Source of the DNA: a virus
Taxonomy: Duplodnaviria; Heunggongvirae; Uroviricota; Caudoviricetes
IMG/VR virus record: IMGVR_UViG_2645727555_000004
Coordinates: 1 to 10,381 of that record
Reading direction: 5' to 3' (one strand)
Length of the DNA stretch: 10,381 bases
Shown here: positions 1-10,381 of the stretch, piece by piece
Numbering within the stretch: the first letter of the stretch is position 1
Layout: each line of letters begins with the position of its first letter
The notes under the pieces: generated by a model
Seen by the model: the letters and a program-made list of their open reading frames with translations, nothing else
What the model was told of the DNA's origin: nothing
Databases searched by the model: none
Position numbers and translations under genes: made by a program

Positions 1-214
1 ACTGCATATTGAGGTGTTTTTACCGGCACAGGTACCTGATTCGGAGCTCGATCAGTGGATGGAAAGCCGGATTTATCCGGCGATGACTGCGATCCCTGCA
101 CTGGCAGGACTGATTACCACGATGGTTACGCAGGGCTATGAGTATCGTCGTGATGACGATATGGCGTTATGGAGCTCTGCGGATCTGACTTATTCCATTA
201 CATACGAGATGTGA
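1..214 (+). CDS. U: Tail terminator / minor tail protein U, 3' portion only (5' end lies upstream of the window)
   Basis: The reading frame is open from position 2 to TGA at 212-214. The translation (..[26 protein letters not shown]...[10 protein letters not shown]) matches the C-terminus of lambda gpU as I recall it. It sits immediately upstream of V as in lambda. The M at 14 in the ORF track is a GTG inside the frame, not the true start. Confidence 0.85.
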
Positions 215-221
215 GGACGAT

Positions 222-974
222 ATGGCAACACCAAATCCCCTGGCGCCGGTAAAAGGTGCCGGTACCACTCTGTGGGTTTACAACGGCAAGGCTGATGCTT
301 ATGCAAACCCGTTGTCAGACGATGACTGGCAGCGACTGGCTAAGGTGAAGGATCTGACGCCGGGCGAGATGACGGCAGAATCCTACGATGATAACTACCT
401 GGATGATGAAGACGCGGACTGGACCGCGACCGGGCAGGGGCAGAAATCTGCAGGTGATACCAGTTTTACGCTGGCCTGGAAACCGGGAGAGGAAGGCCAG
501 AAAGGGCTTATAGGCTGGTTTGAAAGCGGCGATGTCCGGGCCTATAAAATCCGTTTTCCGAATGGCACGGTGGATGTGTTTCGTGGCTGGGTCAGCAGTA
601 TCGGTAAGGCCGTGACGGCGAAAGAAGTGATCACCCGCACGGTGAAAGTCACTAACGTGGGTAAACCTTCTGTAGCGGAAGAACGCAGCAAAATTACGCC
701 GGTCAGTGCGATTAAGGTGACGCCGACATCCGGTACGGTGGCAAAAGGGAAAACAACCACCCTGACGGTTTCTTTTGAGCCGGAAAGTGCAACCGACAAG
801 ACGTTCAGAGCGGTTTCCGCCGATCCGTCGAAAGCCACCATTAGTGTGAAAGATATGACAATTACGGTAAACGGCGTGGCGACAGGTAAGGTGCAGATCC
901 CTGTGGTGAGCGGAAATGGTCAGTTCGCCGCAGTGGCTGAAGTCACCGTTACTGAAGCGGGCGCTGCAGGGTAA
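222..974 (+). CDS. V: Major tail tube protein V, with C-terminal Ig-like (Big_2-type) domain
   Basis: The 250-aa ORF has an N-terminus ([67 protein letters not shown]) highly similar to lambda gpV. The C-terminal third ([39 protein letters not shown]) resembles the Ig-like decoration domain. A GAGGA Shine-Dalgarno lies at 213-217. Position between U and G fits. Confidence 0.92.
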
Positions 975-987
975 ACGGAGGTAATAC

Positions 988-1410
988 ATGTTTCTGAAAA
1001 CAGAACAATTTGAATATAACGGTGTGTCTGTCACGCTTTCTGAGCTGTCTGCGCTGCAGCGGTTTGATTATATAAAGTTTGTTTCAGACGCAGAACAACA
1101 GGAGACAACGAAGCATGATGTCGTGCACATTAACCAGCGATACCTGGAAACGGCATCCCTGCTTGTGGCGATGTCGCTATGGCATACCCATTCCCTCAAA
1201 GGCACTCTGGCCTCTCCGGAGACAGAGATGCAGCAGATCCGCCGTGAAGTGATGCTGGGATGGCCTGCTGATGCACTGAATCAGGCAACGAACCGGGTGC
1301 TTTATCTTTCAGGTATGCTGGATAACCGGCACGATGCCGATCCTGAACAAACCGGGAAAGCAGAAGCGACTGAGCCGGTAACATCAAAAAAGCATTCGAA
1401 GGCGAGCTGA
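988..1410 (+). CDS. G: Tail assembly chaperone G (zero-frame product)
   Basis: The 140-aa ORF starts MFLKTEQFEYNGVSVTLSELSALQR, matching the lambda gpG N-terminus. A GGAGG Shine-Dalgarno lies at 976-980. It is followed by an overlapping -1 frame ORF, as expected for the G/GT pair. Confidence 0.9.
   Translation: MFLKTEQFEYNGVSVTLSELSALQRFDYIKFVSDAEQQETTKHDVVHINQRYLETASLLVAMSLWHTHSLKGTLASPETEMQQIRREVMLGWPADALNQATNRVLYLSGMLDNRHDADPEQTGKAEATEPVTSKKHSKAS
1386..1392 (+). other. Programmed -1 ribosomal frameshift slippery heptamer A AAA AAG (G to G-T)
   Basis: Seen directly: tc A AAA AAG ca, with the zero-frame codons AAA AAG at 1387-1392 (Lys-Lys in G). After a -1 slip the frame continues as AAA AAA GCA TTC... 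into the T frame. This is the only X XXY YYZ heptamer located between the -1 frame stop (1371-1373) and the G stop (1408-1410). Confidence 0.7.
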
Positions 1411-1850
1411 ACTTTGTCCTGAAACTGGCGCGAGAGATGGGGAGACCCGACTGGCGCGCCATGCTTGCCGGGATGACATCCACCGAATATGCCGACTGGC
1501 GACGTTTTTACTGCACGCATTATTTTCAGGATACCCAACTGGACGCTCATTTTTCCGGGCTGATGTACGCCGTACTCAGCCTGTTTTTTGGCGATCCGGA
1601 TATGCATCCGGCGGATTTCAGTCTGCTTGCTCCAGCGTGTGAGGAAGAGCAGACGGAGATGCCGGACGAGGAAGAAATGCTGATGCAGAAAGCGACAGGA
1701 GTTGCCGGAGGCGTCCGGTTCGGAGGGGACGGAGGGCGCGATATTTCACCTTCTGCGGATGTGGTGGATGTCAGCGAGGATGATGTTGCATTAATGATGG
1801 CTTCAGCGGGGATTTCCGGAGGTGTGAGATATGTCCCAGCCAGCGGGTGA
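1392..1850 (+). CDS. T: T portion of the tail assembly chaperone G-T fusion, made by programmed -1 ribosomal frameshift from G (full product 988..1392 joined to 1392..1850)
   Basis: The -1 frame relative to G is open from 1374 (just after an in-frame TGA at 1371-1373) to the stop at 1848-1850. It has no convincing Shine-Dalgarno of its own. A slippery heptamer A AAA AAG at 1386-1392 is in the correct register in the G frame. The G-then-T arrangement before the tape measure gene is conserved in lambda and most long-tailed phages. Confidence 0.8.
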   Translation, partial: AFEGELNFVLKLAREMGRPDWRAMLAGMTSTEYADWRRFYCTHYFQDTQLDAHFSGLMYAVLSLFFGDPDMHPADFSLLAPACEEEQTEMPDEEEMLMQKATGVAGGVRFGGDGGRDISPSADVVDVSEDDVALMMASAGISGGVRYVPASG

Positions 1851-4443
1851 TCTGGTTATTGATTTGAGTCTGGATGCGGCCCGGTTTGATGAACAGATGG
1901 CCCGGGTACGCCGTCATTTTTCCAGTCTGGAGGCGGATGCCAGAAAAACCGCCAGTACTGTTGAACAGGGGCTGAGCCGACAGGCGCTGGCTGCACAAAA
2001 AGCCGGGATATCAGTCGGACAGTATAAGGCTGCCATGCGCACACTGCCCGCACAGTTCACGGATATTGTCACTCAGCTTGCCGGTGGTCAGAATCCCTTC
2101 CTTATCATGCTGCAGCAGGGGGGGCAGATCAGCGATTCATTCGGTGGACCGCTCAGCCTGCTTACCCTGCTGAAGGAGGAACTTCTCGGGATCAGGGATG
2201 CCTCTGAATCATCAGAGGAGTCGCTGTCAGATACGGCAAATGCACTGGCTGAAAATGCCCGGAATGCCGGTGAGCTGGGACGATTTATGTCGGTGGCCCG
2301 TGTGGCGGCAGGTGGCGGGGTTGCCGTACTGGCCGCGCTTGCTGCCGCCGCCTGGCAGGCAGAGCAGGCTGACCGGGCCTTATTGCGTTCACTGATCCTG
2401 ACCGGAGGGGCGGCTGCCACCACAACGGCAGAATTGTGGAAAATGGCCGGGGTGATCAGCGATGAAGCCGGTGGTGGTATCAGACAGGCGGCAGAAAATC
2501 TGGCCCGTCTGGCAGAAAGCGGGAAATATACCGCCGGGCAGCTACGGATCATGGGGGAAACCTCTCAGAGATGGCTGCAGACGGTGGGGGACGATGCCGG
2601 GAAGGTGGAAAAAGCCTTTGAAGGGATTGCAGCAGATCCGGTGAAGGCGCTGGCCTCCCTGAATCAGCAGTATAACTTCCTGAGCGTTTCCCAGTTACGC
2701 CATATTGATGAGCTTGAGCGCACGAAAGGTAAACAGGCTGCGGTGACGGAGGCGATGTCCCTGTTTGCGGATGTCATGAATGCACGTCTGGAGCAACTTG
2801 ATAAAGCGGCCACGCCGGTGGAAAAAATCTGGGACGATGTTAAAACCTGGACTTCTGACGCATGGGCATGGATAGGTGATCATACACTGGGGGCACTCAG
2901 TCTGATCACTGACGTGGTGGCCGGAACCGTTGAACAGGTGAAGCTGCTGCTTGTGCAGGGGGATCTGGCGCTGGCTGAATTTATTCAGTCAGCCTGGGAA
3001 ACGACAAAGAATGTGCCCGGCGTTGGTGCGTTGTTTGGTGAACTGGCAGAAGAGAACCGCGTATTTATTGAGAAAACAAAACGCGATGAACTGGCGCTGA
3101 GAAAATCCATTGCGGAACGGGATGCGCGTATACGCCAGGGGGAAATGGGGTACATCAACCGCTCGCGTGCAACAGGCGTCAGCAAAGGTCCTGGGCAGCA
3201 GGAAGCCGTCAGCCGTCTGGCTGAAGAGCTGACAGGTAAAAAGCATACATCACCGAAAACGCGCTCTGCCGGGGAGAGGGAAGAGGAGCAGGCAAGAGAG
3301 GCTCTGCTTGCCCTTGAAGCTGAGCTCAGGACGCTGGAAAAACACAGCGGTGCGAATGAGAAAATCAGCCTGCAGCGCCGTGATTTATGGAAGGCGGAAA
3401 GTCAGTATGCGGTCCTGAAAGAGGCTGCCACGAAACGGCAGTTATCTGAGCAGGAAAAATCCCTGCTGGCCCATGAGAAAGAAACGCTGGAGTACAAACG
3501 CCAGCTGGCTGAGCTGGGCGACAAGATTGAACACCAGAAACGGCTGAATGAGCTGGCACAGCAGGCGGCGCGGTTTGAACAGCAGCAGAGCGCGAAGCAG
3601 GCGGCAATCAGCGCAAAAGCCCGCGGACTCACCGACCGTCAGGCGCAGCGGGAGTCGGAAGAGCAGCGCCTTCGTGAGGTGTACGGTGATAATCCGGCTG
3701 CGCTGGCGAAGGCCACATCTGCACTGAAGAACACCTGGTCTGCGGAGGAGCAGCTTCGTGGAAGCTGGATGGCCGGGATGAAGTCCGGCTGGGGCGAGTG
3801 GGCGGAAAGTGCGACGGACAGTTTTTCGCAGGTTAAAAACGCGGCCACGCAGACCTTTGACGGTATTGCACAGAATATGGCAGCGATGCTGACCGGCAGC
3901 GAACAGAACTGGCGTGGTTTCACCCGTTCTGTGCTGTCCATGCTGACAGAGATTTTTCTGAAGCAGGCGATGGTGGGGATAGTCGGGAGTATCGGCAGCG
4001 CCATTGGCGGTGCTTTCGGTGGCGGCGCATCCGCGTCAGGCGGTACAGCCATTCAGGCCGCTGCGGCGAAATTCCATTTTGCAACCGGAGGATTTACGGG
4101 AACCGGCGGCAAATATGAGCCAGCGGGAATTGTTCACCGCGGTGAATTCGTCTTCACGAAGGAGGCAACCAGCCGGATTGGCGTGGGGAATCTCTACCGG
4201 CTGATGCGCGGCTATGCCACCGGCGGTTATGTCGGTACACCGGGCAGCATGGCGGACAGCCGGTCGCAGGCGTCCGGGACGTTTGAGCAGAATAACCATG
4301 TGGTGATTAACAACGACGGCACGAACGGTCAGATAGGGCCACAGGCACTGAAGGCTGTTTATGACGTAGCCCGTAAGGCGGCAATGGATGTTGTGACCGG
4401 GCAGATGCGCGATGGTGGTCTGTTCTCCGGAGGTGGACGATGA
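1831..4443 (+). CDS. H: Tail tape measure protein H
   Basis: The 870-aa ORF has an N-terminus (DLVIDLSLDAARFDEQMARVRRHFS...AAQKAGISVGQYKAAMRTLPAQFTD) and C-terminal ~300 aa (LEAELRTLEKH.GANEKIS.QRRDLWKAES...FHFATGGFTGTGGKYEPAGIVHRGEFVFTKEATSRIGVGNLYRLMRGYATGGYVG...MRDGGLFSGGGR) that match lambda gpH. The middle is Ala/Glu/Gln-rich and helical in character, typical of tape measure proteins. It is the largest ORF, follows G-T, and has a GGAGG Shine-Dalgarno before the ATG. Confidence 0.93.
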   Translation: MSQPAGDLVIDLSLDAARFDEQMARVRRHFSSLEADARKTASTVEQGLSRQALAAQKAGISVGQYKAAMRTLPAQFTDIVTQLAGGQNPFLIMLQQGGQISDSFGGPLSLLTLLKEELLGIRDASESSEESLSDTANALAENARNAGELGRFMSVARVAAGGGVAVLAALAAAAWQAEQADRALLRSLILTGGAAATTTAELWKMAGVISDEAGGGIRQAAENLARLAESGKYTAGQLRIMGETSQRWLQTVGDDAGKVEKAFEGIAADPVKALASLNQQYNFLSVSQLRHIDELERTKGKQAAVTEAMSLFADVMNARLEQLDKAATPVEKIWDDVKTWTSDAWAWIGDHTLGALSLITDVVAGTVEQVKLLLVQGDLALAEFIQSAWETTKNVPGVGALFGELAEENRVFIEKTKRDELALRKSIAERDARIRQGEMGYINRSRATGVSKGPGQQEAVSRLAEELTGKKHTSPKTRSAGEREEEQAREALLALEAELRTLEKHSGANEKISLQRRDLWKAESQYAVLKEAATKRQLSEQEKSLLAHEKETLEYKRQLAELGDKIEHQKRLNELAQQAARFEQQQSAKQAAISAKARGLTDRQAQRESEEQRLREVYGDNPAALAKATSALKNTWSAEEQLRGSWMAGMKSGWGEWAESATDSFSQVKNAATQTFDGIAQNMAAMLTGSEQNWRGFTRSVLSMLTEIFLKQAMVGIVGSIGSAIGGAFGGGASASGGTAIQAAAAKFHFATGGFTGTGGKYEPAGIVHRGEFVFTKEATSRIGVGNLYRLMRGYATGGYVGTPGSMADSRSQASGTFEQNNHVVINNDGTNGQIGPQALKAVYDVARKAAMDVVTGQMRDGGLFSGGGR

Positions 4444-4769
4444 AAACCTTCCGCTGGAAAGTGAAACCCGGTATGGATGTGGCTTCGGCCCCTTCCGTAA
4501 GAAAGGTGCGCTTTGGTGATGGCTATTCCCAGCGAGCGCCTGCCGGGCTGAACACTGACCTGAAAACGTACAGCGTGACGCTTTCTGTTCCCCGTTGGGA
4601 GGCCGCGGCGCTGGAGTCGTTTCTGGCTGAGCACGGGGGCTGGAAGGCCTTTCTGTGGACGCCGCCTTATGGCTACCGGCAGATAAAGGTGACCTGCGCA
4701 AAATGGTCGTCGCGGGTCAGTATGCTGCGTGTTGAGTTCAGCGCAGAGTTTGAACAGGTGGTGAACTGA
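4440..4769 (+). CDS. M: Minor tail protein M (tail tip assembly)
   Basis: The 109-aa ORF (MKTFRWKVKPGMDVAS.PSVRKVRFGDGYSQRAPAGLN..LKTYSVTLSVP...VEFSAEFEQVVN) is near-identical to lambda gpM as I recall it. Its start overlaps the H stop (ATGA at 4440-4443). A GGAGG Shine-Dalgarno lies upstream. Confidence 0.93.
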   Translation: MKTFRWKVKPGMDVASAPSVRKVRFGDGYSQRAPAGLNTDLKTYSVTLSVPRWEAAALESFLAEHGGWKAFLWTPPYGYRQIKVTCAKWSSRVSMLRVEFSAEFEQVVN

Positions 4770-5467
4770 TGCAGGATATCCGACAGGAAACACTGAATGA
4801 ATGCACCCGTACGGAGCAGTCGGCCAGCGTGGTGCTCTGGGAAATCGACCTGACAGAGGTCGGTGGAGAACGTTATTTTTTCTGTAATGAGCAGAACGAA
4901 AAAGGTGAGCCGGTCACCTGGCAGGGGCGGCAGTATCAGCCGTATCCCATTCAGGGGAGTGGTTTTGAACTGAATGGCAAAGGCACCAGTACGCGCCCCA
5001 CGCTGACGGTTTCTAACCTGTACGGTATGGTCACCGGGATGGCGGAAGATCTGCAGAGTCTGGTCGGCGGAACGGTGGTCCGGCGTAAGGTTTACGCCCG
5101 TTTTCTGGATGCGGTGAACTTCGTCAACGGAAACAGTGACGCCGATCCGGAGCAGGAGGTGATCAGCAGCTGGCGCATTGAGCAGTGCAGCGAACTGAGC
5201 GCGGTGAGTGCCTCTTTTGTACTGTCCACGCCGACGGAAACGGATGGCGCTGTTTTTCCGGGACGTATCATGCTGGCCAACACCTGCACCTGGACCTATC
5301 GCGGTGACGAGTGCGGTTATAGCGGTCCGGCTGTCGCGGATGAATATGACCAGCCAACGTCCGATATCACGAAGGATAAATGCAGCAAATGCCTGAGCGG
5401 TTGTAAGTTCCGCAATAACGTCGGCAACTTTGGCGGCTTCCTTTCCATTAACAAACTTTCGCAGTAA
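4769..5467 (+). CDS. L: Minor tail protein L (tail tip, iron-sulfur cluster-binding cysteine motif)
   Basis: The 232-aa ORF (MQDIRQETLNECTR.EQSASVVLWEIDLTEVGGERYFFCNEQNEKGEPVTWQGRQYQPYPIQGSGFELNGKG...) is almost identical to lambda gpL. The C-terminal Cys cluster (C..C..C: CTWTYRGDECGYSG...KDKCSKCLSGCKF) is present. Its start overlaps the M stop (TGATG). Confidence 0.93.
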   Translation: MQDIRQETLNECTRTEQSASVVLWEIDLTEVGGERYFFCNEQNEKGEPVTWQGRQYQPYPIQGSGFELNGKGTSTRPTLTVSNLYGMVTGMAEDLQSLVGGTVVRRKVYARFLDAVNFVNGNSDADPEQEVISSWRIEQCSELSAVSASFVLSTPTETDGAVFPGRIMLANTCTWTYRGDECGYSGPAVADEYDQPTSDITKDKCSKCLSGCKFRNNVGNFGGFLSINKLSQ

Positions 5468-5472
5468 ATCCC

Positions 5473-6216
5473 ATGACACAGACAGAATCAGCGATTCTGG
5501 CGCACGCCCGGCGATGTGCGCCAGCGGAGTCGTGCGGCTTCGTGGTGAGAACACCGGAGGGGGAAAGATATTTCCCCTGCGTGAATATCTCCGGTGAGCC
5601 GGAGGCGTATTTCCGGATGGCTCCGGAGGACTGGCTGCAGGCAGAGATGCAGGGTGAGATTGTGGCGCTGGTCCACAGCCACCCCGGTGGTCTGCCCTGG
5701 CTGAGTGAGGCTGACCGGCGGCTGCAGGTGCAGAGCGATTTGCCGTGGTGGCTGGTCTGCCGGGGGGCGATTCACAAGTTCCGCTGTGTGCCGCATCTCA
5801 CCGGGCGGCGCTTTGAGTACGGGGTGACGGACTGTTACACACTGTTCCGGGATGCTTACCATCTGGCGGGGATTGAGATGCCGGATTTTCATCGCGGGGA
5901 TGACTGGTGGCGTAACGGCCAGAATCTCTATCTTGACAATATGGAGGCTACTGGTTTTTACCGTGTCGCACTGACAGAGGCGCAGCCGGGCGATGTGCTG
6001 CTGTGCTGTTTTGGTTCATCGGTGCCGAATCACGCCGCCATTTACTGCGGCGACGGTGAGCTGCTGCACCATATTCCTGAACAACTGAGCAAACGAGAGA
6101 GGTATACCGACAAATGGCAGCGACGCACACACTCCCTCTGGCGTCACCGGGAATGGCACGCATCTGCCTTTACGGGGATTTGCAACGATTTGGCCGCCGC
6201 ATCGACCTTCGTGTGA
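5473..6216 (+). CDS. K: Tail tip assembly protein K (JAMM/MPN-like plus NlpC/P60-like domains)
   Basis: The 247-aa ORF matches lambda gpK. A JAMM-type motif H-S-H-x7-S-x2-D is present (HSHPGGLPWLSEAD) with an upstream Glu (AESCGF). A candidate NlpC/P60 catalytic Cys (VTDCYTLF) and downstream His residues (PNHAAIY, LLHHIP) are also present. The ORF begins 5 nt after the L stop. Confidence 0.9.
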   Translation: MTQTESAILAHARRCAPAESCGFVVRTPEGERYFPCVNISGEPEAYFRMAPEDWLQAEMQGEIVALVHSHPGGLPWLSEADRRLQVQSDLPWWLVCRGAIHKFRCVPHLTGRRFEYGVTDCYTLFRDAYHLAGIEMPDFHRGDDWWRNGQNLYLDNMEATGFYRVALTEAQPGDVLLCCFGSSVPNHAAIYCGDGELLHHIPEQLSKRERYTDKWQRRTHSLWRHREWHASAFTGICNDLAAASTFV

Positions 6217-6755
6217 AAACGGGGGCTGAAGCCATCCGGGCACTGGCCACACAGCTCCCGGCGTTTCGTCAGAAACTGAGCGATGGCTGGTATCAGGTAC
6301 GGATTGCCGGGCGGGATGCAGGAGAAACCGAATTATCATCCCGTCTTAATGAGCCGCTGGCAAATGGTGCCGTGATCCACATCGTGCCGCGTCTTGCGGG
6401 AGCAAAAAGTGGCGGTGTGTTTCAGGCGGTGCTGGGTGCGGCGTTGATTGCTACGGCAATCTGGATGCCGGGGATCAGTATCGCTTTCAGTGACATTCTC
6501 TTTTCAATGGGTGCGGCAATGACGCTTGGTGGTGTGGCGCAGATGCTGGCACCGAAAGCCAGAACTCCCCGTACACAGACAACGGATAACGGCAAACAGA
6601 ACACCTATTTCTCCTCACTGGATAACATGGTTGCCCAGGGCAATGTCCTGCCTGTTCTGTACGGTGAAATGCGCGTGGGGTCACGTGTGGCATCTCAGGA
6701 GATCAGCACGGCAGATGAAGGGGATGGTGGTCAGGTTGTGGTAATTGGGCGGTAA
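6114..6755 (+). CDS. I: Tail tip assembly protein I
   Basis: The 213-aa ORF has an N-terminus (MAATHTLPLASPGMARICLYGDLQRFGRRIDLRVKTGAEAIRALATQLPAFRQKLSDGWYQVRIAGRD) and C-terminus (APKARTPR.QTTDNGKQNTYFSSLDNMVAQGNVLPVLYGEMRVGSRV.SQEISTADEGDGGQVVVIGR) that match lambda gpI. It overlaps the 3' end of K by 103 nt in a different frame, as in lambda. Confidence 0.88.
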   Translation: MAATHTLPLASPGMARICLYGDLQRFGRRIDLRVKTGAEAIRALATQLPAFRQKLSDGWYQVRIAGRDAGETELSSRLNEPLANGAVIHIVPRLAGAKSGGVFQAVLGAALIATAIWMPGISIAFSDILFSMGAAMTLGGVAQMLAPKARTPRTQTTDNGKQNTYFSSLDNMVAQGNVLPVLYGEMRVGSRVASQEISTADEGDGGQVVVIGR

Positions 6756-6828
6756 TATTATTTTACTCATGTTCTAACTAATTTAATATTTATATCGAAC
6801 ACTGATAATTATTCTATTGGTTAGCTAT
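6756..6828 (+). promoter_or_regulatory. AT-rich upstream region of the moron gene; putative sigma70-type promoter (exact -35/-10 not resolvable by eye)
   Basis: This is a very AT-rich 73-nt stretch (tattattttactcatgttctaactaatttaatatttatatcgaacactgataattattctattggttagctat) immediately 5' of the lipoprotein ORF. It contains several near -10 hexamers (TAATAT at 6784-6789, GATAAT at 6804-6809), but no -35 element could be matched convincingly. Morons typically carry their own promoter. Confidence 0.25.
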
Positions 6829-7167
6829 ATGAACAAAACGATTTTATTCTGCACGATTATTGCCTTAACAGGATGTAAATCTTTGGATTACGTAAAATCC
6901 GGAAAACCTGTAATGGAAGGTAATTCATTAAAAAATATTGATGAATTGTCAGGCTGCATATCCAGACAATGGGCTGGTAATGGAACACCTATAACATCCC
7001 TTCCTATTGAGAATGGGGTAAGCCTTTTAGTTCCACAGGCTATGGGGGGATATGATGTTGTGCTTGATATCAAAAAAGCAGGAAATGGCAGTAGTTTTAC
7101 TCTTTATGAACGTGTACCAGCATTAACGCCAAAAATTTTTGCTGATAGTGTTAATGCATGTAAATAA
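6829..7167 (+). CDS. Small predicted outer-membrane lipoprotein encoded on an AT-rich moron between tail genes I and J; function unknown (candidate superinfection-exclusion or host-envelope factor)
   Basis: The ORF is 112 aa from ATG 6829 (the track's TTG start at 6817 is less likely). The N-terminus MNKTILFCTIIALTGC has a basic n-region, a hydrophobic core and a lipobox LTGC, so it looks like a signal peptidase II substrate. The residue after the lipidated Cys is Lys, not Asp, which implies outer-membrane sorting by the Lol pathway. The mature part has two further Cys residues (SGC, NAC). G+C is visibly far lower than in the flanking tail genes, and the gene is followed by an intrinsic terminator. 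No homolog was recognised from memory. Confidence 0.7.
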   Translation: MNKTILFCTIIALTGCKSLDYVKSGKPVMEGNSLKNIDELSGCISRQWAGNGTPITSLPIENGVSLLVPQAMGGYDVVLDIKKAGNGSSFTLYERVPALTPKIFADSVNACK

Positions 7168-7189
7168 TAGTTAATCCTGTCGTAACTCA

Positions 7190-7220
7190 TGAGCCGCCTT
7201 TTGGGCGGCTTTGTTGTTTA
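7190..7220 (+). terminator. Rho-independent terminator downstream of the moron lipoprotein gene
   Basis: A perfect 7-bp GC-rich inverted repeat AGCCGCC (7192-7198) and GGCGGCT (7204-7210) flanks a TTTTG loop and is followed by the T-rich tract TTGTTGTTT (7211-7219). It sits 25 nt after the lipoprotein stop and just before the J ribosome-binding site. Confidence 0.6.
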
Positions 7221-7233
7221 TGGAGTGTGAGGA

Positions 7234-10200
7234 ATGGGTAAAGGAAGCAGTAAGGGGCATACCCCGCGCGAAGCGAGGGACAACCTGAAGTCCACGCAGC
7301 TGCTGAGTGTGATCGATGCCATCAGCGAAGGGCCGGTTGAAGGTCCGGTGGACGGATTAAAAAGCGTGCTGCTGAACAGTACGCCGGTGCTGGACAGTGA
7401 GGGGAATACCAATATATCCGGTGTCACGGTGGTGTTCCGGGCAGGTGAGCAGGAGCAGACACCGCCGGAGGGATTTGAATCCTCCGGCTCCGAGACGGTG
7501 CTGGGTACGGAAGTGAAATATGACACGCCGATCACCCGGACCATCACGTCGGCAAACATCGACCGTCTGCGCTTTACCTTCGGTGTGCAGGCTCTGGTGG
7601 AAACCACCTCAAAGGGGGACCGGAATCCGTCGGAAGTCCGCCTGCTGGTTCAGATACAACGTAACGGTGGCTGGGTGACGGAAAAAGACATCACCATTAA
7701 AGGCAAAACCACCTCACAGTATCTGGCCTCGGTGGTGGTGGGTAACCTGCCGCCGCGCCCGTTTAATATCCGGATGCGCAGGATGACGCCGGACAGCACC
7801 ACAGACCAGCTGCAGAACAAAACGCTCTGGTCGTCATACACCGAAATCATCGATGTGAAACAGGGCTACCCGAACACGGCACTGGTCGGCGTGCAGGTGG
7901 ACTCGGAGCAGTTCGGTAGCCAGCAGGTGAGCCGTAATTATCATCTGCGCGGGCGTATTCTGCAGGTGCCGTCGAATTATAACCCGCAGACGCGGCAATA
8001 CAGCGGTATCTGGGACGGAACGTTTAAACCGGCATACAGCAACAACATGGCCTGGTGTCTGTGGGATATGCTGACCCATCCACGCTACGGCATGGGGAAA
8101 CGTCTTGGTGCGGCGGATGTGGACAAATGGGCGCTGTATGTCATCGGCCAGTACTGCGACCAGTCGGTGCCGGATGGCTTTGGTGGCACGGAGCCGCGTA
8201 TTACCTGTAATGCGTACCTGACCACGCAGCGCAAGGCGTGGGATGTGCTCAGTGATTTCTGCTCGGCGATGCGCTGTATGCCGGTATGGAACGGGCAGAC
8301 GCTGACGTTTGTGCAGGACCGGCCATCGGATAAGGTGTGGACCTATAACCGCAGTAATGTGGTGATGCCGGATGATGGCGCGCCGTTCCGCTACAGCTTC
8401 AGCGCCCTGAAAGACCGCCATAATGCCGTTGAGGTGAACTGGATTGACCCGAACAACGGCTGGGAGACGGCGACAGAGCTTGTGGAGGATACGCAGGCCA
8501 TTGCCCGTTACGGTCGTAACGTCACGAAGATGGATGCTTTTGGCTGTACCAGCCGGGGGCAGGCACACCGCGCCGGGCTGTGGCTGATTAAAACAGAACT
8601 GCTGGAAACGCAGACCGTGGACTTCAGCGTGGGCGCAGAAGGGCTTCGCCATGTGCCGGGCGATGTCATTGAAATCTGTGATGATGACTATGCCGGTATC
8701 AGCACCGGCGGGCGCGTGCTGGCGGTAAACAGCCAGACCCGGACGCTGACGCTCGACCGTGAAATCACGCTGCCATCCTCCGGCACCACGCTGATAAGCC
8801 TGGTTGACGGACAGGGGAATCCGGTCAGCGTGGAGGTCCAGTCCGTCACCGACGGCGTGAAGGTGAAAGTGAGCCGTGTTCCTGACGGCGTTGCCGAATA
8901 CAGCGTGTGGGGGCTGAAGCTGCCGACGCTGCGCCAGCGCCTGTTCCGCTGCGTGAGTATCCGTGAGAACGATGACGGCACGTATGCCATCACCGCCGTG
9001 CAGCATGTACCGGAAAAAGAAGCCATCGTGGATAACGGGGCGCACTTTGACGGCGACCAGAGCGGCACGGTGAATGGTGTCACGCCGCCAGCGGTGCAGC
9101 ACCTGACTGCCGAAGTCACCGCAGACAGCGGGGAGTATCAGGTACTGGCCCGCTGGGACACGCCGAAGGTGGTGAAGGGCGTGAGCTTCCTGCTTCGCCT
9201 GACCGTGGCAGCGGATGACGGCAGTGAGCGGCTGGTCAGCACGGCCAGGACGACGGAAACCACATACCGCTTCACGCAACTGGCGCTGGGAAACTACAGG
9301 CTGACAGTCCGGGCGGCAAATGCCTGGGGGCAGCAGGGCGATCCGGCATCGGTATCGTTCCGGATTGCCGCACCGGCAGCGCCGTCGCGGATTGAGCTGA
9401 CGCCGGGCTATTTTCAGATAACCGCCACGCCGTATCTTGCCGTTTATGATCCGACGGTACAGTTTGAGTTCTGGTTCTCAGAAAAGCGGATTGCGGATAT
9501 CAGGCAGGTTGAAACCGCAGCCCGCTATCTTGGCTCGGCGCTGTACTGGATAGCTGCCAGTATCAATATCAAACCGGGCCATGATTATTATTTTTATATC
9601 CGCAGTGTGAATACTGTTGGCAAATCGGCATTTGTGGAGGCTGTTGGCCAGCCGAGTGATGATGCATCCGGCTATCTGGATTTTTTCAAAGGAGAGATAG
9701 GGAAAACCCATCTGGCTCAGGAGTTGTGGACGCAGATTGATAACGGTCAGCTTGCGCCTGACCTGGCTGAAATCAGGACGTCCATTACGGATGTCAGCAA
9801 TGAAATCACGCAGACCGTCAATAAAAAACTGGAAGACCAGAGTGCAGCGATCCAGCAGATACAGAAGGTTCAGGTTGATACAAATAATAATCTGAACAGC
9901 ATGTGGGCTGTGAAGCTGCAGCAGATGCAGGACGGACGCCTTTATATTGCGGGTATCGGTGCCGGTATTGAGAATACGCCAGCAGGAATGCAGAGTCAGG
10001 TGCTGCTGGCGGCAGACAGGATTGCGATGATTAATCCTGCGAATGGCAACACAAAGCCGATGTTTGTTGGTCAGGGTGATCAGATATTCATGAACGACGT
10101 GTTCCTGAAACGCCTGACGGCCCCCACCATTACCAGCGGCGGTAATCCTCCGGCATTTTCCCTGACACCGGACGGGCGGCTGACGGCGAAAAATGCCGAT

Positions 10201-10381
10201 ATCAGCGGTAACGTGAATGCGAACTCCGGGACGCTCAACAACGTCACGATTAACGAGAACTGTCGGGTTCTGGGAAAACTGTCCGCGAACCAGATTGAAG
10301 GCGATATTGTCAAAACGGTCAGCAAGTCTTTCCCCCGCACGAGCACTTATGCCAGTGGCACCATCACGGTAAGAATCAGTG
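7234..10381 (+). CDS. J: Tail tip / central tail fiber host specificity protein J, 5' ~1049 codons (3' end beyond window)
   Basis: ATG at 7234 is preceded by GGAG at 7222-7225. The frame is open to the window end; it is absent from the ORF track only because no stop falls inside the window. The translation begins [54 protein letters not shown] and stays lambda gpJ-like throughout (e.g. ..[55 protein letters not shown]). All minus-strand ORFs across 7218-9279 are antisense to it. Confidence 0.93.

Follow-up and report, generated by a model that had tools for sequence, protein, structure and literature searches.

Among the means by which siphophages close their host to later phages, the small lipoproteins of the Cor, Llp and Rtp45 types are understood best, and each solved case has revealed a new manipulation of an essential outer-membrane machine. 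Cor is represented in phages phi80, N15, T1 and HK022 and Llp in T5 (PHROG 1119), Llp being held by a disulfide between Cys11 and Cys58 (PMC9586334). Rtp45 and the related exclusion lipoproteins of small siphophages, which are directed at LptD or LamB, are likewise periplasmic outer-membrane proteins with a disulfide (PMC12685063, PMC9586334). In the known cases the gene of the exclusion lipoprotein directly adjoins that of the receptor-binding protein or domain (PMC9586334, PMC12685063), so that both are inherited as a pair. Another type of exclusion is that of HK97 gp15, an inner-membrane protein related to YebO whose effect on a phage is determined by its tail, not by its receptor (PMC3594210). 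The DNA analysed here, referred to as the window, comprises 10,381 nucleotides of a Caudoviricetes virus (IMG/VR record IMGVR_UViG_2645727555_000004, positions 1 to 10,381) and contains a lipoprotein gene (6829-7167) directly upstream of the host-specificity gene J, which starts at 7234. A reading of the sequence only had described this gene as a moron whose product might mask the outer-membrane receptor used by this J. The comparisons presented below place the gene among mobile cargo and argue against its pairing with the receptor of its neighbour.

The product is a prolipoprotein of 112 aa, MNKTILFCTIIALTGC followed by KSLDY...NACK in translation. The program-made list of open reading frames (ORFs) opens the same frame at a TTG at 6817; the ATG at 6829 is backed by all the homologues, which begin M-[NKR]-K, and by the RefSeq annotation of UTI89, where the same coordinates are given as WP_001332187.1, 'hypothetical protein'. 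The N-terminus, MNKTILFCTIIALTG before the lipid Cys, contains a basic n-region (K3), an h-region uncharged at residues 6-11 and the lipobox L13-T14-G15-C16, in agreement with the pattern [LVI][ASTVI][GAS]C preceded by a basic n-region and an uncharged h-region. Cleavage by signal peptidase II and lipidation are predicted. In E. coli an Asp at +2 keeps a lipoprotein in the inner membrane; as the residues at +2 and +3 are Lys and Ser and this Lol-avoidance Asp is not present, the predicted destination of the protein is the outer membrane. The mature chain (C16-K112) has 97 residues including the lipid Cys, that is, a 96-aa mature domain, with exactly two further cysteines, C43 and C111, while C8 belongs to the signal peptide and would be cleaved away. 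The lipoprotein signal, LTGC lipobox, +2 Lys and mature domain of ~96 aa with two cysteines that the sequence-only reading had named are all present, and both cysteines are invariant in 54 sequences.

The receptor-binding C-terminus of J lies outside the window (the UTI89 J has 1,159 aa at full length) and was compared among homologous loci. Those with 99-100% identical lipoproteins contain four C-terminal types of J, A in 27, B in 4, C in 6 and D in 2, type A accompanying 27 of the 39 sampled E. coli loci in which the J end could be read. Types A, B and C are mutually 56-74% identical (in the last 250 aa B is 74% and C 56% identical to A) and share 55-63% identity with the LamB-binding J end of lambda; type D aligns over only ~50 residues and its distal receptor-binding domain is unrelated. 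In 322 locus pairs with lipoproteins at least 98% identical, the identity of the last 200 aa of J goes from 14.5% to 99.5%. The similarity of the lipoprotein gave a Spearman coefficient of 0.74 with gene I and of 0.29 with the J C-terminus, figures that are descriptive only since the locus pairs are not phylogenetically independent. In the pair L078 and L080 the lipoprotein is 80% identical, I 77% and the N-terminal part of J 93%, against 20% for the J end. Among loci with identical lipoproteins, the tape-measure protein varies likewise, at 25-99% identity, and the I protein at 60-100%. A related J C-terminus was identified in 287 phage records, 17 of them at least 95% identical to type A (VT1-Sakai, PPompW phages and vB_EcoS-640R1), and the lipoprotein gene in none of the 287. 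The gene adjoins the 5' side of J, with ~3.3 kb between it and the part encoding the receptor-binding end, and phage Fraca (L002) contains both a PHROG 914 lipoprotein between K and I (9001-9336) and a canonical cor (PHROG 1119) downstream of J (14579-14812). Together, these results argue that the lipoprotein is not the cognate mask of the receptor of the neighbouring J, as had been proposed; the four J types with identical lipoproteins, the phages with the same J and no such gene, and the separate cor of Fraca all speak against that claim. Adjacency to J is one of several cargo slots.

The lipoprotein ORF has a guanine-plus-cytosine (GC) content of 0.36 against 0.58/0.59 in the flanks, a deficit of 22 points, and the whole insert of 0.34-0.39 against 0.55-0.60 around it. 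The alignment with lambda, which has no lipoprotein gene, runs at 93-95% nucleotide identity up to ~6748, at the 3' end of I (93% identical there), and again from ~7203, the spacer between I and J being of 60 bp in lambda and 478 bp in the window. At the same place the lambda spacer contains a hairpin, CCGCC-TGCG-GGCGG-TTTT (L081 2468-2490), homologous to the terminator-like one that follows the window gene. As the empty spacer of lambda already holds it, the inserted DNA is delimited to ~6756-7190, the terminator probably predates the arrival of the insert, and the window hairpin is no evidence for an insert-borne terminator; as proof of an autonomous transcription unit it was rejected. In lambda this terminator-like element stands in the middle of the tail operon without any moron, and could be a relic or a landing pad. 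Morons in the sense of Juhala and Hendrix (PMC3594210) are additions compared with related phages that deviate in GC content and have their own terminator and their own promoter, active in the repressed prophage; the first two marks are found here, and the gene was rightly called a moron by the sequence-only reading: it is an optional, low-GC insert with presence/absence polymorphism in E. coli.

A homologous I-J junction was identified in 4,351 of 5,426 complete E. coli genomes (8,786 places), with the insert in 334 genomes; ~96% of these junctions are empty, with the two flanks ~590 bp apart. Searched alone, the insert is present at 95-100% identity in 337 of the 5,426 genomes (~6%), including UTI89, NU14, S88, IHE3034, APEC O1, PMV-1 and the type strain ATCC 11775; 69 IMG/VR contigs derived from prophages contain it too, and a scan of genome contigs gave a single locus. 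Neither megablast of the insert against 50,697 phage records nor tblastn of a distant member (P0041) against phages gave a match. One E. coli plasmid record from blood, NZ_CP082081.1 (150 kb, non-mobilizable), contains a 100% identical copy at 71460-71795 (H94), and may be a phage-plasmid or a misassembled prophage. In the E. coli loci L011-L068 the block formed by M, L, K, I, the lipoprotein gene and the N-terminal part of J is 88-100% conserved, the upstream genes V, G, T and H vary between 25% and 99% identity and the J C-terminus is exchanged on its own, a pattern suggestive of abrupt mosaic borders at either end of the tail-tip block. Loci L014, L054, L056 and L059 hold ~1.6 kb of extra DNA between L and K, probably an insertion sequence. 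The UTI89 prophage (L001) has a Lom/Ail barrel just after J (24026-24625) and is integrated at ompW beside the trp operon, leaving a truncated ompW remnant (30106-30231); the 'PPompW' phages share its ompW site and its J C-terminus and lack the lipoprotein.

The positions occupied by the family were mapped by placing the tail proteins of the window on 80 fetched loci and on annotated records. In the E. coli clade (at least 92% identity) the gene is found between I and J, in the Klebsiella/Kluyvera clade (48-59%), with J proteins of 1,069 to more than 3,300 aa, between K and I, and in the Enterobacter clade (51-52%), which has an HK97-like tail operon, between T and the tape-measure gene, the slot of the HK97 gp15 moron (PMC3594210). 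The Hendrixvirinae phages Fraca and LMessi (~30%) contain it between K and I after a hypothetical gene; in Fraca this further small ORF (PHROG 2320 in LMessi) stands between K and the lipoprotein gene. Serratia phage OS31 presents it between K and I, and Pseudomonas phage D14P (vB_PaeS-D14P, BK061589.1) has in its K-I gap (L084 6956-7297) a complete, unannotated member of 113 aa (MRIVAVGAALLLLAGC...). In phage phiAH14a the member is p33, beside a second I-like gene in the early region. The TTG start annotated for p33 (p33/p34, L082 ~6962-7309) lies too far downstream, for with an in-frame ATG ~66 nt before it the lipoprotein signal is complete (MRIAALGLAVALLSGC), and the annotated 37-aa p34 overlaps that stretch. 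The remaining contexts are a prophage end beside the integrase (L097, L098), a prophage replication region, on the opposite strand (L087), a small capsid/terminase/primase element (L089), an integrase/RadC island (L085) and, for a weaker relative, ordinary chromosomal genes (L100). Outside the window the GC content of the gene is below that of its flanks in 8 of 11 contexts, by 8-14 points, and a hairpin with a T-run (-11 to -15 kcal/mol) lies directly 3' of the gene in 9 contexts, the window and 8 others. The copies in tail modules have a GC content below that of their flanks, and such a hairpin comes after most of them. The lipoprotein gene is an optional, compositionally foreign cargo that moves among interchangeable slots, and its relatives are carried by temperate siphophages and other mobile elements.

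The window protein matches the profile phrog_914 ('unknown function') with E 7.3e-33, residues 1-112 on positions 1-118 of 118, and all the distant members tested match it as well. An exhaustive profile search gave 125 cluster representatives at E < 1e-3, nearly all of 105-125 aa; the close homologues (48-62% identity) come from Klebsiella, Enterobacter, Kluyvera and Jejubacter and are all annotated as 'hypothetical'. The only invariant columns in the 54-sequence alignment are the lipid Cys (C16), C43 and C111, with P27, K35, W48 and G63 nearly invariant. The lipobox is present in 53 of the 54 members and an Asp at +2 in none; 45 of 53 have exactly two extra cysteines and in 51 of 53 the last one is penultimate. 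The E. coli alleles differ from that of the window by 4-6 synonymous and 0-2 non-synonymous changes, with a ratio of non-synonymous to synonymous substitution rates (dN/dS) of ~0.05-0.1, and the gene is under strong purifying selection. Some E. coli alleles are frameshifted or truncated (P0002, P0018; L066, L067, L068), therefore gene decay also occurs. No Pfam match at E <=1 was obtained for the window protein, nor a Pfam domain family in any of the 54 members, and the protein has no sequence relative in the PDB. Literature searches by accession, by PHROG number and by lipoprotein with gpK, gpI or gpJ found no paper on the family, and papers on prophage transcriptomics (PMC7067206) and on Tai tail-assembly interference (PMC11364771) held nothing relevant. 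The family is real, selected and uncharacterised, its function being assigned in no library searched. It had been suspected to be undescribed, which stands as to function and literature; since it is catalogued as PHROG 914 and as a RefSeq hypothetical protein, 'uncharacterised' is the better word. Discarded along the way were a sub-threshold match of the signal peptide alone to VirB7 (NCBIfam), the JGI label 'YceK' for P0143, backed by no Pfam match, and a degenerate DNA pattern for ERxPSLSPSWM, which had three matches in viral contigs, of which the one inspected, L095, proved fortuitous, the contig being unrelated, GC-rich and devoid of a lipoprotein ORF.

In common with Cor and Llp, the window protein is a small phage lipoprotein with predicted outer-membrane sorting, a similar signal peptide and short N-terminal tether, and two non-lipid cysteines, one near the C-terminus, encoded in a siphophage tail region. 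It matches only phrog_914, however, whereas the Cor of Fraca and the Llp of T5 match phrog_1119 (6.8e-34 and 1.1e-19), and hhalign covers residues 1-32 (Cor) or 1-20 (Llp) only, that is, the signal peptide and tether. The mature domain is of ~96 aa with a modelled alpha/beta fold, against ~60 aa; the gene neither adjoins the receptor-binding end nor is co-inherited with it, and in Fraca it co-occurs with cor. Rtp45 is the same kind of protein and its group shows that targets need not be TonB-dependent receptors, but Rtp45-type genes lie directly downstream of the gpJ or receptor-binding protein locus and no similarity to them was detected. HK97 gp15 is also a moron inside a lambdoid tail operon and a precedent for receptor-independent exclusion, although it is not a lipoprotein and has no sequence relationship to the window protein (no Pfam match). 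Bor of lambda (PF06291, PHROG 260) and TraT are, similarly, outer-membrane lipoproteins of ~100 aa carried as prophage or plasmid cargo; Bor scores 1.8e-30 (Pfam) and 2.5e-57 (PHROG), whereas the window protein matches neither PF06291 nor phrog_260, hhalign covers the signal peptide only and Bor sits by the lysis genes. Pfam contains models for Lom/Ail, TraT and YebO/gp15, and no match to these families was obtained for the window protein (E <=1) or any of the 54 members. That the protein is not Cor, Llp, Bor or Lom is thereby confirmed: there is no profile match, the alignments with Cor, Llp and Bor end at the signal peptide or tether, and Llp is not among the fold matches. The PHROG 890 lipoprotein (phiAH14a p83, with a relative in satellite AH14b) shares the K-I slot beside gene I and the same type of signal peptide and tether (PMC4936722), but its mature domain of 124 aa is unrelated and the hhalign alignment is confined to the signal peptide and a few residues at the start of the mature chain. 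As p83 shows, the slot attracts different lipoprotein families.

An AlphaFold2 model built on a 12-sequence alignment had a mean predicted local distance difference test score (pLDDT) of 83.7 and a predicted template modelling score (pTM) of 0.76, with the signal peptide disordered. The mature domain is predicted as a compact 96-aa beta-alpha-beta4-alpha fold, in the order short helix, beta1, alpha1 (37-50, holding C43), beta2-beta5 and alpha2 (103-111, ending at C111). Since both invariant cysteines sit in the two helices, a C43-C111 disulfide stapling them is likely. The best Foldseek match in the PDB was Flpp3 (E 5e-3, template modelling (TM) score 0.52) and nothing reached E 1e-3; the structures of T5 Llp (8a60_B, 7qjf_A), present in the PDB copy, were not among the matches. 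Flpp3, a DUF3568 lipoprotein of Francisella (PDB 6pny, 2mu4, 9nlt_B), has 6-9% identity to the window protein, but none of the 54 members gave a DUF3568 Pfam match and the likeness is that of a common fold, also found in DUF302, KA1 and the BamC N-terminal domain. A viral structure library gave one significant match, an uncharacterised protein of Pseudomonas phage phiAH14a (25% identity, TM 0.70/0.83), which proved to be a member of PHROG 914.

Seven independent lineages have the family next to gene I: E. coli, Klebsiella, Kluyvera, Fraca, LMessi, OS31 and D14P. In phiAH14a the second pair of lipoprotein and I genes is located outside the tail module (L082 7028-7948), and the true K-I slot (L092 16239-17310) holds a different lipoprotein, the p83 of PHROG 890. 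Satellite AH14b contains an I gene beside a lipoprotein gene and no other tail genes (PMC4936722). The combination occurs three times in this helper-satellite pair, with two unrelated families, PHROG 914 and PHROG 890. This adjacency may be due to permissive intergenic sites and recombination through conserved I sequences; a functional link between the lipoprotein and I is doubtful. In the window, residues 100-130 of gpI (6411-6503) form a strongly hydrophobic, transmembrane-like segment (GGVFQAVLGAALIATAIWMPGISIAF...) after the ubiquitin-like domain, with weak Pfam matches to membrane families.

The reading preferred here, with a probability of about 0.45, is that of an envelope-acting phage cargo lipoprotein serving superinfection exclusion or progeny protection, a role suggested by analogy and context. 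Sec, Lgt, LspA, Lnt and then Lol form the established route of lipoproteins. The window protein would follow it, receiving its lipid at Cys16 and its anchorage in the outer membrane, most probably on the periplasmic side, and DsbA would make the C43-C111 disulfide that staples the two helices. At the envelope it would act for the phage, either by excluding superinfection or by sparing the progeny futile adsorption or injection, and would bind either the tail tip as it enters or some conserved component of the outer membrane or periplasm, the target not being specified by the receptor-binding domain of the adjoining J. Small disulfide-containing periplasmic outer-membrane lipoproteins have a precedent as exclusion factors in Llp (PMC9586334) and Rtp45 (PMC12685063). 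From its position the gene would be transcribed at least with the antiterminated late tail operon. It may plausibly be transcribed from the repressed prophage as well, although the window, L004 and L008 yielded no convincing promoter; the OS31 copy has one promoter match at 9/12, promoter-like matches being inconsistent across contexts, and the Shine-Dalgarno of the window gene is poor (GG at 6819-6820).

Several results weigh against this exclusion or protection role. The hexamer scan gave no promoter of at least 9/12 on the + strand in the window, L004 or L008, and the hairpin 3' of the window gene is common to the empty spacer of lambda. The very low dN/dS is not usual for an arms-race exclusion factor, and would fit a conserved host target. 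The window protein and four relatives gave no defence match in PADLOC-DB v2 at E <=1. Finally, the helix-grip-like fold (Flpp3 and START/Bet v 1-like matches) could instead mean small-molecule or lipid binding.

A mask of the Cor/Llp type, cognate to this J, would bind its outer-membrane receptor and stop adsorption. Such a mask is suggested by the small outer-membrane lipoprotein with two conserved cysteines in a tail module, as in Cor, Llp and Rtp45 (PMC9586334, PMC12685063), and by the 27 of 39 sampled E. coli copies that travel with J type A, but it is unlikely: virtually identical lipoproteins (99-100%) are found with types A to D, the end of D being unrelated, and their similarity tracks I (rho 0.74) and not the J C-terminus (rho 0.29), as the 80% and 20% of L078 and L080 illustrate. 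Phage records with a J end at least 95% identical to type A lack the gene, which lies ~3.3 kb from that end in the window and in the K-I or T-H slots in other clades; Fraca has its separate cor in the canonical position, and no likeness in sequence or fold to Cor or Llp extends past the signal peptide. Doubtful, too, is a block after adsorption, in which PHROG 914 proteins would constitute a new class of Gram-negative exclusion lipoproteins that mask no receptor and instead catch the tail tip of the entering siphophage (gpI or tape-measure material) on the periplasmic side of the outer membrane, in analogy to TP-J34 Ltp or HK97 gp15, or would form a portable two-gene unit with a gpI-like protein. 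This would explain the frequent attachment to gene I, which recurs across distances of 25-50% identity, the pairs of I and lipoprotein genes outside the tail module of phiAH14a and, without other tail genes, in AH14b (PMC4936722), and the indifference to J type; it is also favoured by the hydrophobic C-terminal segment of gpI and by the Enterobacter clade, placed in the T-tape-measure slot of gp15, whose exclusion is tail-dependent and receptor-independent (PMC3594210). Adjacency to I is not universal, however (L008, L085, L087, L089, L097 and L098 are exceptions), permissive sites with recombination via conserved I could account for it, and the proteins that go with identical lipoproteins span 25-99% identity for the tape measure and 60-100% for I.

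A moron for host fitness or virulence of the Bor/TraT type (serum resistance, envelope robustness or adhesion), unrelated to phage entry, is rather unlikely. The 100%-identical copies listed are in extraintestinal pathogenic E. coli (ExPEC) and avian pathogenic E. coli (APEC) strains (UTI89, S88, APEC O1, IHE3034 and NU14), the lipoprotein Flpp3, closest in structure, is described as a virulence determinant of Francisella, and lambda-type prophages carry the morons bor and lom (PMC3594210). Nevertheless, there is no Lambda_Bor, phrog_260 or other Pfam match, and members are also carried by phages of sources to which serum resistance does not matter, namely Antarctic Pseudomonas, mine-biofilm Serratia, wastewater and rotten tomato. 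A small structural or assembly component of the tail is very improbable in spite of the location inside the tail-tip cluster in most lineages, as the cleavable lipoprotein signal exports the protein from the cytoplasm, the site of tail assembly; the gene is also missing from lambda and from ~96% of the homologous E. coli I-J junctions, its position varies and includes sites outside tail modules, and its GC content is foreign to its neighbours. An o-spanin or lysis role was rejected, the prophage lysis cassette being far upstream and the gene being neither beside an i-spanin nor proline-rich.

The 10.4-kb window is a lambda-type tail module comprising V, G, T, H, M, L, K, I, the lipoprotein gene and J in that order, and its features are listed in Table 1.

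Table 1. Features of the tail module and of the lipoprotein insert in the window
Feature	Position	Strand	Remarks
V	222-974
G	988-1410
G/T slippery heptamer GGGAAAG	1354-1360		lambda-type programmed -1 frameshift, near 3' end of G
T	1437-1850
Tape-measure gene H	1831-4443
M, L, K	between H and I		K = JAB + NlpC/P60
Tail assembly gene I	6114-6755	+	upstream neighbour; Pfam Lambda_tail_I, E 4.4e-24
Low-GC insert (moron)	6756-7190	+	~435 bp: 73-nt AT-rich leader, lipoprotein coding sequence, 23-nt trailer
Weak sigma-70-like candidate TTTACT-16-TAATAT	6762-6789	+	8/12
Weak sigma-70-like candidate TTTAAT-16-GATAAT	6782-6809	+	8/12
Lipoprotein coding sequence	6829-7167	+	112 aa, ATG 6829 to TAA 7165-7167; PHROG 914 family
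Signal peptide (aa 1-15) and predicted lipidated Cys16	6829-6876	+	Cys16 codon 6874-6876; lipobox LTGC, +2 Lys, +3 Ser
Cys43 codon	6955-6957	+	invariant in family; predicted helix alpha1; putative disulfide partner of Cys111
Cys111 codon	7159-7161	+	invariant, penultimate residue, end of predicted helix alpha2
Intrinsic-terminator-like hairpin	7191-7221	+	GAGCCGCC-TTT-GGGCGGCTT, then TGTTGTTTAT; z -2.8
Host-specificity gene J, N-terminal 1,049 aa	7234-10381	+	Pfam FNIII-A_GpJ, Phage-tail_3, Ig_J, Phage_Tail_Tip

Phage cargo lipoproteins are already known as a kind, and a lipoprotein moron as such is no surprise to the specialist; what is new here is the family, the fold class for such a role, the slots and the lack of linkage to the receptor-binding domain. 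PHROG 914 differs from Cor, Llp and Rtp45 in having no homology to them, another predicted fold, other slots and no such linkage, yet it is strongly conserved. Unrelated lipoprotein genes have repeatedly been accommodated as cargo at the K-I, I-J and T-tape-measure junctions of lambdoid tail operons. PHROG 914 is a widespread family, conserved and unstudied, and is carried by the model ExPEC strains UTI89, S88, APEC O1 and IHE3034. As a host-fitness factor, the product would represent a surface or envelope protein of ExPEC prophages that has escaped study. As an exclusion factor, it would probably have a conserved target, which would be informative on how lambda-like tails cross the envelope and relevant to the prediction of host range in phage therapy.

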